This document shows, one piece after another, positions 1-6,086 of a DNA stretch of 64,000 nt. The position numbers were made by a program, and so were the translations under genes. The stretch lies in NCBI GenBank assembly GCA_963733055.1, contig CAVTBR010000001.1, positions 832,001 through 896,000 on the forward strand, read 5' to 3'. The notes below the pieces were generated by a model, which made no database searches, was not told where the DNA came from, and saw only the letters and a list, made by a program, of their open reading frames with translations. Numbering within the stretch: the stretch's first letter is position 1; every line of letters starts with the position of its first letter. The DNA is from Candidatus Bathyarchaeota archaeon. Lineage in GTDB: Archaea > Thermoproteota > Bathyarchaeia > 40CM-2-53-6.

Positions 1-770
1 GTTACAACTGGTGCCGCTAGGAATTCAGCTAAGGCTTGGAGTTCGCGGTAAGCATTAGCCATCTTTACTCCACCTCCCGCGAGGATGACGGGACGTTGTG
101 CGTTGAGAATCGCACGTGCGATGGTTTTCACGGCCACGGGGTCCGGGTCGAGCAGTGGTTGGTAGTTTGGAAAATCGACCCGCTCCGGGAATTCGACTTC
201 GTCTTCACCCTGCTGAACGTCTTTTGGAATGTCCACTAAAACCGGTTGAGGCCTTCGAGTTGTCGCCAAATAGAAGGCCGCCTTAATTGAGTAGGGCACG
301 TCGCGGACGCGGAGTGGTTGAAAGGTGTATTTTGTTACGGATGTAGCCATCCCAACGATATCGGTCTCTTGGAAAGCGTCCGTTCCAATCATGTAGGACG
401 GAACTTGACCTGTGACTGCCACAACGGGAGATGAATCCATGTACGCAGTAGCCAAACCAGTCAGGAGGTTGGTAGCACCAGGGCCCGAGGTTGCCATACA
501 AACCCCGACCTTCCCAGAAGCACGCGCATAACCGTCGGCCATATGGGCCGCGGACTGTTCATGCCTTGCAAGAATGTGTCTCAGACTCTTTTCATTCAGC
601 GGAGTGTATCTAAACGAATCACAATCGTACAGGGCATCGTAGATTGGCATGTTCGCTCCGCCGGGATGCCCAAAAACGACTTCCACTCCCTCCCGTAGTA
701 GCGCTTCCACAGCCGCATGGGCTCCGGACATTCTTGTCAAGTTTAGAGTCAACTCTTGTTTTTTATGCAC
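1..770 (-). CDS. ilvB: Acetolactate synthase large subunit, 5' part (runs off window start)
   Basis: Manual translation: MSGAHAAVEALLREGVEVVFGHPGGANMPIYDAL...RHEQSAAHMADGYARASGKVGVCMATSGPGATN, the ThDP-enzyme N-terminal motifs. In-frame starts are GTG 770 (6 nt after GGAGG), TTG 740 and ATG 731. Absent from the ORF track because it has no stop in the window. Confidence 0.95.
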   Translation of the reverse strand, partial: MHKKQELTLNLTRMSGAHAAVEALLREGVEVVFGHPGGANMPIYDALYDCDSFRYTPLNEKSLRHILARHEQSAAHMADGYARASGKVGVCMATSGPGATNLLTGLATAYMDSSPVVAVTGQVPSYMIGTDAFQETDIVGMATSVTKYTFQPLRVRDVPYSIKAAFYLATTRRPQPVLVDIPKDVQQGEDEVEFPERVDFPNYQPLLDPDPVAVKTIARAILNAQRPVILAGGGVKMANAYRELQALAEFLAAPVV

Positions 771-804
771 CCCGCCCCTCCGAACAACTAAGCTGGAGGA
801 CGGG
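771..804 (-). promoter_or_regulatory. GC-rich hairpin whose 3' arm contains an SD-like GGAGG for ilvB
   Basis: mRNA CCCGUCCUCC (804-795) pairs with GGAGGGGCGGG (781-771), with one G-U pair and a one-base bulge. Confidence 0.6.
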
Positions 805-879
805 CTATTGAAGGACGATAATGTCTACAAGCGAAGTCAGTAAGTTCAGAATGCTAAACTGAGGCGAATGGTTTGTCAA
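805..879 (-). CDS. Putative ilvB leader peptide MTNHSPQFSILNLLTSLVDIIVLQ (24 aa)
   Basis: TTG 879 to TAG 805; 10 of the last 15 codons are Ile/Leu/Val; TATA-like CTTATTA at about 923-929 on the minus strand. Confidence 0.55.
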   Translation of the reverse strand: MTNHSPQFSILNLLTSLVDIIVLQ

Positions 880-1024
880 CGCACTCGTAGACCTTGAATT
901 CAGCCACCATCCGAGGAGCCTCTAATAAGATTATCGAGGGTTCTCGTCAGTCTCACGTCGCTACTAGAACCTGAGTAACCATTTCGTCCCATCTAGTTCC
1001 TTAGCTGTAGTAGGCATGAACTTG

Positions 1025-2695
1025 TCAGTTGACCAAACGACGATTTGCTTGCACTTGTTTCAATGGTGTTTTCTTGGCCGATCCCGTTCTTAGCGCATAG
1101 TTGTAACCATCGACTAGCGCTTCTACACTTGCTTCGATAATGTTTGTCGATGACGCGACCGTCGTCCATGTTCTGCGCTTGTCGAAGAAGTCTATGTACA
1201 CAGCAACTCGGGCCGCTGTTCCCGCTTCCGAGTCGACCTCCCGGACCCTGTAACCAATAAGCATCGCTGAAAACTTCGAACCGAACTTTTCTCTCAACAC
1301 AACGCGAAGACCTTGGTCCAGAGCGTTGACTGGCCCATTGCCTACGGCAGTAGTCTCCAGCACCTTACCCTTGACCTCAACCGCCAGTTTACAGTGTGAT
1401 AATGACTCCTTACTTTGGTTCTGCACAGCAGCGTTCCAATAAAGAACCCTGAAAGGGTCAGATCGCCGAGTCAAAGCGCGCAAGAAGAGAAGCTCTACAG
1501 AAGCTTCCGCGAACTCGAGGTTGCAGCCCAAGGCTTCGAGATGTTTGACGTCCCGAAGGAGGTCTGAGAGTCTTTTGTCAGTCTTGGAGAGGCGGAATCC
1601 AAATCTTTGTGCGGCAGAGAGCAGGCTAGAGCGGCCGGCTTGTGAGGAGACTGTAATGGCTCGTGTATTGCCGAAGGCTTTCGGATCGAAGAATTCGTAC
1701 GCCGCTTCTGTCTTCAGCACCGCGTCCCCATGGACGCCCCCCTTGTGCGAGAAAGCATGTCTTCCGACAAAAGGCTTGTACCTGTCCTCCCGAACGCCGC
1801 TCATCTCGTACGTGAAACTCGACAACGAGGCTAATTTTGAGGTGTCCAGCCCCGTCTTAACGCCCAGCAGGTGAAGGTTCGCAACAACCTCGATTAAGTT
1901 GGCATTACCAACCCTCTCGCCCAAGCCATTCACAGTTCCCTGTATGTGCGAGGCTCCGGCCATCAGAGCGAAAAGTGAGTTAGCTGTGGCAATGCCGCGG
2001 TCGTTATGCGCATGGATCCCAACTGGAACTCCAACTTGACCCACCACGAGTCTAGTTGACTCGTAGATTTCTGATGGGTAGGTCCCCCCTCGCGTATCGC
2101 ACAGAACAAGCGTGGAGGCTCCCGCGTCTTGTGCTGCCTCCAAAGTCGAGAGGGCGTACTCAGGGTCTGCCCTGAAACCATCAAAGAAATGTTCAGCGTC
2201 ATAGATCACGTTCCGTTCGTGCGAAAGTAGAAACTCCACGGAATCACGAATCATTCTTCTATTCTCTTCCAAGGTTGTCCTTAGAACTTTCTCAACTTGA
2301 AAGGTCCAAGACTTGCCGAAGATTGTGACCGTTTCGGTTCCGGCTCTTAGAAGATGCTCGAGGTTACGATCTTCGGACGGATGCGTATCTGCGCGGCGCG
2401 TCATTCCGAAAGCGGTGACGTGAGAGAAATCTTTTTTGTTCAACGATTGCGCGAGTTTGAAAAATTCGCTATCAGTCGGATTCGTTTCGTTGGGCCAACC
2501 AGCTTCAACGTAATCAACTGCGGCAGCAATGAAAGCTCGTGTAACTCTAAGTTTCTGGGTTGAGGTAAAGTTTACACCTACTGATTGATTCCCATCACGG
2601 AGTGTTGTATCGTAAACTTCTACGGATTCAGGGAAATGTCGGGGGAAACTACACTGTTCGGCGACGGCTGTTTTGGATATCGATAAAACGATCAC
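1025..2695 (-). CDS. cimA: Citramalate synthase (LeuA/CimA family, DRE-TIM)
   Basis: YDTTLRDG, YDAEHFFDG, LCDTRGG, HAHND, GLGERVGN and HKGGVH motifs; C-terminal regulatory domain GNGPVNALD. Confidence 0.9.
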   Translation of the reverse strand: MIVLSISKTAVAEQCSFPRHFPESVEVYDTTLRDGNQSVGVNFTSTQKLRVTRAFIAAAVDYVEAGWPNETNPTDSEFFKLAQSLNKKDFSHVTAFGMTRRADTHPSEDRNLEHLLRAGTETVTIFGKSWTFQVEKVLRTTLEENRRMIRDSVEFLLSHERNVIYDAEHFFDGFRADPEYALSTLEAAQDAGASTLVLCDTRGGTYPSEIYESTRLVVGQVGVPVGIHAHNDRGIATANSLFALMAGASHIQGTVNGLGERVGNANLIEVVANLHLLGVKTGLDTSKLASLSSFTYEMSGVREDRYKPFVGRHAFSHKGGVHGDAVLKTEAAYEFFDPKAFGNTRAITVSSQAGRSSLLSAAQRFGFRLSKTDKRLSDLLRDVKHLEALGCNLEFAEASVELLFLRALTRRSDPFRVLYWNAAVQNQSKESLSHCKLAVEVKGKVLETTAVGNGPVNALDQGLRVVLREKFGSKFSAMLIGYRVREVDSEAGTAARVAVYIDFFDKRRTWTTVASSTNIIEASVEALVDGYNYALRTGSAKKTPLKQVQANRRLVN

Positions 2696-2725
2696 TCATT
2701 AGAACTAGCCTTTTTCGTCGATAGC

Positions 2726-2753
2726 TATGGCGGTAATAAAAACGTTCGCCATA
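2726..2753. promoter_or_regulatory. Inverted repeat TATGGCG-N14-CGCCATA bracketing the probable cimA TATA box
   Basis: Perfect 7-bp arms around CGAACG-TTTTTATTA (minus strand), about 40 nt upstream of the cimA GTG. Confidence 0.45.
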
Positions 2754-2779
2754 CGCTCTGGGACGAATTGAACCATCCC

Positions 2780-2869
2780 TTAGAGTGGAATAATCGTGGA
2801 TTCCTTTTCGGACTCGAACACAAACGAGGTCAAGGTCTTCTCGATGCCTCCAATGAGTCTTAGCTTACG
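2780..2869 (-). pseudogene. 3' remnant of an Lrp/AsnC-family regulator
   Basis: Reads RKLRLIGGIEKTLTSFVFESEKESTIIPL*, resembling the end of an AsnC/RAM ligand-binding domain. No start codon before an upstream in-frame stop. Confidence 0.55.
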
Positions 2870-2877
2870 CCACCGCC

Positions 2878-3261
2878 CTAGCCACGCAGATAATTGTCTT
2901 TACCTGTAAGCCAATCTTCTCGAGGAGGGCTGAAACAGTCGAGGTCTAGGGAATCCTCAATCGCAACTGCAGCGTGCTCAATGTTCGATGGGATTACTAA
3001 AACCTCGCCTTCTTTCACAATGGTATCTCTTCCGTTTATTGTGAATTTCAGCGCTCCCTTCAGAATAATTGTGATTTGTTCACTCACATGCTTGTGGGGC
3101 GGGACAATACACCCCTTCAATAGGACGATATAGCCGAGCATCTCATTATTTCCCGAGATAATCCTCCTCGAAAGCTTTGGATTTAGCCATTCTTCCTTTA
3201 GATCCGAAAGTTTACAGAATTTGACTTCGTCTTTCACAAATGGTTTTGCATCAGACCCCAA
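2878..3261 (-). CDS. Cupin-domain protein
   Basis: PPHKHVSEQ and IPSNIEH cupin motifs. Confidence 0.9.
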   Translation of the reverse strand: MGSDAKPFVKDEVKFCKLSDLKEEWLNPKLSRRIISGNNEMLGYIVLLKGCIVPPHKHVSEQITIILKGALKFTINGRDTIVKEGEVLVIPSNIEHAAVAIEDSLDLDCFSPPREDWLTGKDNYLRG

Positions 3262-5621: not shown

Positions 5622-5750
5622 AAAGCACAGACTATTTTAATAGTGGATTATTCGTCGAACAATCTTAATAGAACGCGAGAGGTTCTTCCCCAGAAAACCA
5701 AAGACAACGTCCTTCACGAGTAATCCAACAATCTTGTTATGGTATGTTCA

Positions 5751-6086
5751 ATGAGTCAGCCGAACCTTGTTCGAATTGGCAAGAAACCCATTATGAACTA
5801 CGTGACAGCCTGCGTGACACTCTTCAATTCGGGCAACGGACAGGTCATGGTCAGGGCAAGAGGCCAAGCAATAGAGAAAGCCATCGACACCGTACAAATG
5901 CTAAAGCACAGCTTCCTCAAAGACGTACGCGTCAAAAGCATAAACCTTGGGTCAGAAGATGTGACCCGCTACGACGGCACTCGAGGCAATATTTCAACGA
6001 TCGAAATCACACTCTCACAAGGAGATGACGAAGAGGAATTTGAGGAAGACGAGAACGTCGAGGTTGAACAAACCACACCCCCTTAG
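5751..6086 (+). CDS. alba: DNA/RNA-binding protein Alba with an acidic C-terminal tail
   Basis: IGKKPIMNYV, RARGQAIEKAIDTV and ISTIEITL motifs. Confidence 0.9.
   Translation: MSQPNLVRIGKKPIMNYVTACVTLFNSGNGQVMVRARGQAIEKAIDTVQMLKHSFLKDVRVKSINLGSEDVTRYDGTRGNISTIEITLSQGDDEEEFEEDENVEVEQTTPP

Follow-up and report, generated by a model that had tools for sequence, protein, structure and literature searches.

Leader-peptide attenuation is a textbook form of bacterial gene control, which relies on coupled transcription and translation. The locus described here raises the question of whether an archaeon senses its amino acid supply in a comparable way. The window (the whole stretch of 64,000 nucleotides that was analysed) belongs to the 2.88-Mb assembly of a Candidatus Bathyarchaeota archaeon, designated G000, and holds on its minus strand, upstream of the acetolactate synthase gene ilvB, a short open reading frame (ORF) rich in isoleucine, leucine and valine (Ile/Leu/Val) codons that is followed by a hairpin. 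An earlier inspection of the letters alone, the sequence-only reading, had listed at this place a TATA-like box, a TTG-started ORF and a hairpin, and had proposed that they act as a translational attenuator of ilvB. All of these parts are present at the positions given for them, and the analysis of related loci and the folding predictions suggest that the element is probably a ribosome-stalling sensor of Ile/Leu/Val supply, controlling the operon in cis.

On the minus strand, the TATA-like box is followed by a conserved box, the leader ORF, the hairpin (P1), an A-rich spacer, and the codons TTG 740 and ATG 731, which open ilvB. Downstream of the leader lies an operon of nine genes, ilvB-ilvN-ilvC-leuB-leuA-ilvD-leuC-leuD-ilvE, all of them tightly packed on the same strand, with leuB encoding a LEU3-type dehydrogenase. 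Since these genes constitute the full Ile/Leu/Val pathway, the leader stands at the head of the entire pathway.

The leader ORF holds 10 Ile/Leu/Val residues within its last 15 codons. Its conservation was followed in a set of close relatives consisting of 31 distinct genus-level sequences, taken from genome and metagenome scans, whose IlvB proteins are 74–90% identical to that of the window; like the other related loci counted below, these are non-independent samples. The Ile/Leu/Val-rich ORF is conserved among these relatives, and in all 31 a conserved start codon ([AT]TG, 18–19 nt past a TTCAAGG box) shares the frame of the stop. Some species start with TTG and others with ATG, the length of the ORF takes eight values between 21 and 29 codons, and an internal stop is absent from 30 of the 31 sequences, the exception being L095. 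This preservation of the frame argues for translation of the ORF. The locus would therefore present what is expected of an attenuator, that is, a short and presumably translated ORF, rich in the codons of the end products, upstream of the biosynthetic operon.

The composition of the leaders points in the same direction. Over the last 10 codons of 29 leaders of this clade, T occupies the first, second and third codon positions with frequencies of 0.04, 0.78 and 0.37, respectively. In this set, whose selection for at least 7 Ile/Leu/Val out of 10 biases the count somewhat, all 226 codons with T in the second position (T2 codons) specify Ile, Leu or Val, with Phe and Met absent. The same holds for 416 of the 424 T2 codons in 55 leaders of other clades. 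The 290 codons of the 29 leaders include 2 Ala, 1 Gly and no Trp, and their remaining positions hold Gln, Thr, Ser and Asp instead of further hydrophobic residues. A segment of this composition resembles a codon sensor, not a membrane peptide. In all 84 leaders, the final Ile/Leu/Val codon is located one or two codons ahead of the stop.

Leaders of this type recur before ilvB in several archaeal lineages. A scan for an ORF that ends 25–100 nt before ilvB, and in which 7 or more of the last 10 residues are Ile/Leu/Val, retrieved 35 of 77 genome loci, compared with none of the 77 reverse complements and 0.5% of 1540 dinucleotide shuffles; among metagenome loci, the leader is present in 44 of 72 and in none of the 72 reverse complements. 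The ensemble of leader and hairpin is thus far above chance. Besides the loci closest to the window, whose nearest named members are labelled Candidatus Bathyarchaeota, carriers are titled Nitrososphaera, Nitrosopumilaceae, Nitrosotenuis, Nitrosomirales and Conexivisphaera (names as labelled in the records or in kinship labels). According to the genome search, the families that resemble ammonia oxidisers belong to the phylum of the window, Thermoproteota, in a different class. The leader peptides of the distant carriers are unlike that of the window except for the terminal run, as in the groups ending in HVLVLLRVA or LLLVELVL. The conservation of an Ile/Leu/Val leader and a hairpin before ilvB in many archaea suggests that archaea, too, sense their amino acid supply by means of a stalling ribosome.

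In the 28 relatives that have the TTCAAGG box, the TATA-like 8-mer starts 29–32 nt before it without exception. The conserved box at 884–898, which is nearly invariant, includes an AAGG resembling a Shine-Dalgarno sequence and the 5′ strand (892–884) of a predicted helix, P0. From the distance to the TATA-like box, transcription is predicted to start near the first bases of this conserved box. In the ammonia oxidisers, a TTTATAAA box precedes the leader ATG by approximately 25 nt, and therefore their mRNA is nearly leaderless. A sigma-70 promoter match at 879–851 was disregarded, being irrelevant in an archaeal host.

The hairpin P1 is formed by the 5′ arm CCCGUCCUCC (804–795), which pairs with GGAGGGGCGGG (781–771). 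Taken alone, it has a folding energy of -20.8 kcal/mol (z -3.13), equalled by 1 of 200 dinucleotide shuffles, whereas the entire 181-nt stretch between 720 and 900 shows no exceptional degree of structure (z -1.50), with 14 of 200 shuffles folding equally well. Its position next to the stop is as conserved as the sequence-only reading had led one to expect, given that 30 of the 31 close relatives bear a hairpin of -17 to -24 kcal/mol at 0–2 nt from the stop, and L095 has one at the corresponding place. Nine distinct stem types, all of them 0–2 nt from the stop, reach z values of -3.1 to -5.3, with 0–1 of 200 shuffles equally stable. They have only a CCCG/CGGG clamp in common, and a sister genus has an unrelated perfect stem of 10 bp. 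Within subgroups, the changes in the stem are mostly from G-C to G-U (for example, UG:9 CG:2 and GC:10 GU:6), and the many G-U pairs speak for an RNA of the minus strand and against a DNA palindrome or operator. When MAFFT and RNAalifold were applied to all 31 hairpin regions together, no structure was predicted because the arms were misaligned, and the subgroups were consequently folded separately. A covariance model built from the 16 hairpins of group I (R1) did not reach the window at E ≤10, and the alignment derived from it (A7) was kept out of all counts, as it included antisense matches of the palindromic stems.

The second structural feature, P0, is a long-range helix predicted by RNAalifold, in which the 5′ end of the leader pairs with the Ile/Leu/Val codons. 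In a group of 12 sequences, 98% of the cells are paired and seven of the nine pairs are invariant, with one pair appearing as GU in six sequences, GC in three and AU in three. P0 is predicted independently in two subgroups, in the second of which it is longer and takes in the start codon, and an analogous pairing is predicted in Nitrososphaera. The cells of P0 and P1 are paired in 96–97% of cases, against 39–55% when the partner is slid. As P0 is nearly invariant within the subgroups, its support consists of pairing potential, not of covariation.

These features are consistent with a mechanism in which the leader ORF would sense charged tRNA(Ile/Leu/Val). An empty leader is expected to fold as P0 plus P1. 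When Ile/Leu/Val are scarce, the ribosome would stall on the codon run, keeping P0 open and P1 folded; when they are plentiful, it would run to the stop and into P1, melting the hairpin and then departing, so that the leader would refold to the closed P0+P1 form. In partition-function folding, with the ribosome modelled as a 28-nt mask whose footprint was assumed to reach 12 nt past the A-site codon, the predicted pair probability of P1 is 0.93 in the free RNA or with the A site 7 or 4 codons before the stop, 0.50 and 0.36 when the ribosome occupies one of the last two codons, and 0.04 at the stop. Stalling would be expected to alter the expression of the operon through a one-shot decision during transcription on whether the nascent RNA is prematurely terminated or cleaved between P1 and ilvB. 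The agent would be a factor such as FttA/aCPSF1, rather than a bacterial-type terminator or the masking of a Shine-Dalgarno sequence. This factor-dependent read-out is proposed tentatively: granted that the element is a sensor, it is possible rather than probable. An alternative is kinetic occlusion, where a ribosome held at the last codons would block a hairpin-dependent stop signal; this fits the strict placement of the run beside the stop, but not the length of the run.

Several findings weigh against the stalling sensor. With respect to its distribution, a convincing leader was detected in 5 of 60 ilvB loci sampled across the phylum (families f8 and f18; two loci from a family in the order of the window and three from a Nitrosopumilaceae-like family), and many Nitrososphaeraceae loci contain no such ORF. 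No leader was found before ilvD (0/5) or leuC (0/4) in five genomes, of which four are Nitrosopumilaceae-like and one is from the class of the window. With respect to the leader itself, that of the window combines a TTG start with a merely weak Shine-Dalgarno-like AAGG, the close relative L127 has a different upstream region without a leader, and L095 (genome G008) has a TGA within the long leader frame. This stop is either an assembly error or a sign that the terminal run alone matters. An internal TTG in L095 would still yield a 15-residue peptide, MQIIAVVVTLVVVLQ.

The RNA structures provide further points of this kind. Covariation within the subgroups is weak. The expectation of covarying stem pairs holds in group II (n=12), which exceeds the shuffles (0/500), although relatedness can yield the same result, and fails in group I (n=16), which does not exceed them; in all, covariation lends weak support. 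Mutually exclusive hairpins were not found either: RNAalifold yields P0 and P1 only, and neither arm of P1 has an alternative partner.

Nor does the region downstream of P1 resemble an intrinsic terminator, for which a GC-rich hairpin with a U-tract would be required. The sequence-only reading had correctly pointed out the lack of a U-tract, since P1 is followed in the window by GUGCAUAAAAAAC, and no terminator-like site was detected between 600 and 1200. In close relatives, P1 is followed at most by short U/G-rich stretches, and over the leader-positive loci there is no consistent U-tract after the hairpins, a qualitative result because the stem-extension rule made the U counts unreliable. 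Several loci of ammonia oxidisers show a short hairpin overlapping the stop, then a U-run, and then a Shine-Dalgarno sequence. Across G000, the 498 regions that follow convergent genes, as delimited by crude ORF-based gene calls, include 30 with runs of T5 or longer and have a mean fold z of -0.29. Given this lack of T-runs and of excess folding at gene ends, a bacterial-type intrinsic terminator is unlikely at the leader, and the transcript ends of G000 are probably set by factors rather than by intrinsic signals. Archaeal polarity is attributed to the factor FttA in a review (PMC12548453).

A read-out at the level of translation has to be judged from the start of ilvB. All 80 IlvB matches obtained by tblastn start at the residue encoded by ATG 731 (731–729), and an [AT]TG is found 9 nt upstream of this conserved ATG in 25 of the 31 relatives and 6 nt upstream in another five. 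It follows that ilvB starts at TTG 740 or ATG 731, past the hairpin, with TTG 740–738 as the probable start. The ammonia oxidisers exhibit the same ATG-N6-ATG pattern, with GGTGA 8–10 nt ahead. The Shine-Dalgarno-like GGAGUG of the relatives is located 3′ of the hairpin. In G000, GGAG is enriched 8–13 nt before starts, and the spacing from this motif to the start in the relatives is 14 nt after GGAG, at the long edge of the range of the genome, so the true ilvB ribosome-binding site is itself not certain. Eight relatives (L087, L093, L113, L120 and L123–L126) also hold a three-codon mini-ORF (ATG AAA AXX TGA) 6 nt after GGAGTG, absent from the window, whose stop overlaps the TTG or ATG start of ilvB (TTGA/ATGA) in a layout typical of termination-reinitiation coupling.

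Among the competing explanations, a translational read-out, in which the pyrimidine-rich codons or the 5′ arm of P1 would mask the true ilvB site (the AAAGGAGUG region) until stalling unmasks it, is unlikely. The GUC AUU CUU codons can form a wobble duplex with AGGAGUG, masking of the 5′ arm shifts the predicted accessibility in a few distant loci (for example, from 0.40 to 0.17 in L064), and analogues have been proven in bacteria (bioRxiv 10.1101/834739). Over the 31 sequences, however, the ilvB start region has a predicted accessibility that averages 0.49 in the free RNA, 0.53 with a stalled ribosome and 0.52 with the ribosome at the stop. The stalled state exceeds the free one nominally (Wilcoxon p 0.02), while the stalled and at-stop states are indistinguishable (p 0.66), and in other clades the effect of masking on Shine-Dalgarno accessibility differs in sign. 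An accessibility of about 0.5 in every ribosome state, with no predicted sequestration, counts against the sensor as well.

It is quite improbable that P0 and P1 instead make up a structured RNA to which a regulatory protein or an RNase binds, with the ORF being incidental or merely remodelling the RNA. The high pairing of P0 and P1 in all members would suit such a role, as would the strong conservation of synonymous positions in Nitrososphaera leaders and the occurrence of different conserved, non-coding-looking elements before ilvB in other families of the phylum. Nevertheless, a structured RNA leaves unexplained the three-base periodicity, the restriction of T2 codons to Ile/Leu/Val, the alternation between ATG and TTG, and the in-frame changes of length, as well as the fact that distant clades have Ile/Leu/Val runs encoded by unrelated nucleotide sequences.

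The model of the sequence-only reading, where P1 would hide a GGAGG (781–777) serving GTG 770 until a ribosome stalled on the last codons frees it, is very unlikely. Its motifs are all there: the GGAGG precedes GTG 770 by 6 nt, this GTG shares the reading frame of ilvB (ORF 3..770), and a near-copy of the anti-Shine-Dalgarno sequence, CGUCCUUC, is found at 817–810. The same logic has been shown for mycobacterial poly-cysteine short ORFs (bioRxiv 10.1101/834739). However, GGAGG occurs within the 3′ arm of the hairpin in 10 of the 31 relatives and is followed after 4–9 nt by an open in-frame start in 2 of the 31, none of the IlvB matches extends into the 13 residues that a start at GTG 770 would add, and the GGAGUG of the relatives sits after the hairpin. 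A ribosome at most of the Ile/Leu/Val codons is predicted to fall short of the hairpin arm, with a stall at least four codons before the stop leaving P1 intact. The second anti-Shine-Dalgarno copy is a by-product of the GUC/CUU codons and not a conserved pairing partner, and the evidence places the start of ilvB at 740 or 731, an outcome that the sequence-only reading had itself named as speaking against its model. Finally, a small hydrophobic protein with a function of its own, such as a membrane peptide, co-expressed with the operon can hardly be maintained, for although its C-terminal end is hydrophobic, and small proteins of membranes are frequent and often escape annotation, the hydrophobic stretch comprises merely ~8–10 residues of the restricted composition given above, without Phe, Met or Trp, and the N-terminal halves show no conservation from one clade to another.

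The stalling sensor being preferred, its features are collected with those of the neighbouring genes in Table 1.

Table 1. Coordinates of the leader element and its surroundings within the window.
Feature	Position	Strand	Basis or remark
TATA-like box CTTATTAG	922..929	-	read in sequence
Conserved 5′ leader box TTCAAGGTCTACGAG	884..898	-	nearly invariant in two subgroup alignments
Leader ORF MTNHSPQFSILNLLTSLVDIIVLQ, TTG start at 879, 24 codons + TAG (807–805)	805..879	-	ORF translation
Ile/Leu/Val-rich control segment, leader residues 10–23	811..852	-	ORF translation; codon statistics
P0 3′ strand CUUGUAGAC (codons Leu-Val-Asp), predicted to pair with 892–884	823..831	-	RNAalifold, 12 sequences
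Hairpin P1, starting at the base after the leader stop	771..804	-	folding
GGAGG (781–777) and GTG (770–768) proposed earlier, judged non-functional for ilvB	768..781	-	conservation in 31 relatives
Weak Shine-Dalgarno-like AGAGTTGA, where relatives have AAAGGAGTG	749..756	-	alignment of relatives
ilvB, 5′ part, acetolactate synthase large subunit	1..740	-	best family TIGR00118; gene leaves the window
cimA, citramalate synthase, upstream gene	1025..2695	-	TIGR00977, 535 bits against a cut-off of 450

The upstream gene, cimA, shares the strand of the leader, and the leader's own promoter region separates the two. At 5739–6083 lies a gene for an Alba chromatin protein. Among 41 genomes of the family of the window, G000 included, 11 have an IlvB match at E ≤1e-60 (2 of 13 among those of high quality); many of these relatives may be without the pathway or may have a divergent enzyme, incomplete assemblies being the other possible cause. 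Two contigs titled Chloroflexota bacterium and Candidatus Acidoferrum (L001 and L002), with IlvB proteins 79–82% identical to that of the window, carry the same archaeal leader and are probably mis-binned archaeal contigs.

Other candidates were set aside. In the sample of 60 loci, the apparent short Ile/Leu/Val ORFs of families f30, f43 and f31 were not counted, as they are either very short or located inside the end of the preceding coding sequence. An ORF of G000 ending in QIILLVLLV, on contig C1 approximately 14 kb outside the window and before a ribbon-helix-helix/PIN pair, was judged to be due to chance. When the whole of G000 was scanned for short upstream ORFs with an excess of any amino acid, the top matches were noise.

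Elements of other kinds precede ilvB elsewhere in the phylum. In the class of the window, loci L186–L196 (families f12–f14) hold a different conserved element instead of the leader, ~100–120 nt upstream of ilvB, with a [A/G]TGAGGGATCG..CACCTCAATAG motif that resembles the 3′ end of 16S rRNA and can form a UGAGG/CCUCA hairpin. This element opens a short ORF (MRDRHLN...) and is also found at L251, upstream of a leuA-like gene. In other families (L220–L222, L226, L230, L231, L235, L237 and L238), a TATA box precedes GTGAAAAAGGATGA...CCCTCCAAGT by ~25 nt; this sequence is located 75–96 nt upstream of ilvB and is conserved at the nucleotide level. It encodes an ORF of 12–13 codons ending in Leu-Gln-Val/Ile, and may represent another kind of ilvB leader.

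Searches for known elements gave little. Rfam returned only three chance-level matches (E 1.5–4.3) in positions 1–3000 of the window, none in 10 related loci at the gathering score, none at E ≤1 in 20 other ilvB loci, and no match for the two types of element just described. As the sequence-only reading had supposed, neither Rfam nor the literature yielded a described attenuator of archaeal ilv genes; for archaeal leader-peptide attenuation in general, only bacterial cases were found, in a search that covered subscription journals thinly, so that an older description is possible.

Taken more broadly, leader-peptide sensing by ribosomes may exist in Archaea, from Bathyarchaeia-like archaea of soil and peat to the ammonia-oxidising Nitrososphaeria, being old or recurrent and having a non-bacterial read-out in which the codons would pair with the 5′ end of the mRNA and a single hairpin would stand at the stop, without a terminator or Shine-Dalgarno masking. 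Such a design would suggest that sensing is coupled to an archaeal factor for termination or RNA cleavage. We regard this broader claim as somewhat short of an even chance. If confirmed, the element would offer a natural, sequence-defined system for the study of archaeal transcription–translation coupling, ribosome stalling and factor-dependent termination, and it would reveal how amino acid synthesis is regulated in ammonia-oxidising archaea, which are abundant and ecologically important. Several of the carriers are cultured, which makes the hypothesis directly testable.

Among known systems, the element is closest in layout to the bacterial ilv/leu attenuators, such as ilvBN and ilvGMEDA from E. 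coli or ilvBNC from C. glutamicum (PMC11857589), which share a short Ile/Leu/Val-rich ORF before an acetolactate synthase operon, a stable hairpin after it, and stalling on the cognate codons as the presumed signal. Contrary to them, the archaeal element has a TATA-box promoter, no triad of protector, antiterminator and terminator, and no U-tract. Its control codons run up to the stop, with the hairpin beginning at the next base, and their predicted partner is the 5′ end of the RNA, not a segment further downstream.

A second group for comparison is that of the leaderless poly-cysteine short ORFs of mycobacteria (bioRxiv 10.1101/834739) and the actinobacterial leader elements (PMC1262725), which likewise have the sensing ORF at or near the 5′ end of the mRNA and a stalling control at the level of the operon. 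The actinobacterial elements have been proposed to act on the ribosome-binding site (PMC1262725). In these systems, the downstream ribosome-binding site is hidden in a duplex, unlike in the archaeal element, where the predicted accessibility of ilvB is unchanged between states. The hallmark of translational attenuators (ermC, the mycobacterial Cys short ORFs and the actinobacterial leuA leader) was accordingly not found, a comparison limited to thermodynamic predictions.

Because the tests for alternative hairpins, a terminator and Shine-Dalgarno masking failed, the element is best described as one that would work like an attenuator without being a member of those families. Attenuation of the tnaC/Rho type in E. 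coli is factor-dependent. The archaeal element would differ from it in that its signal would be an uncharged tRNA rather than a free amino acid, and no factor-binding site has been identified. As with factor-dependent systems, G000 is without the signatures of intrinsic terminators. By analogy with tnaC/Rho attenuation and with archaeal FttA polarity (PMC12548453), the access of a termination factor to the RNA immediately past the leader ORF could depend on a ribosome positioned at the very end of that ORF.

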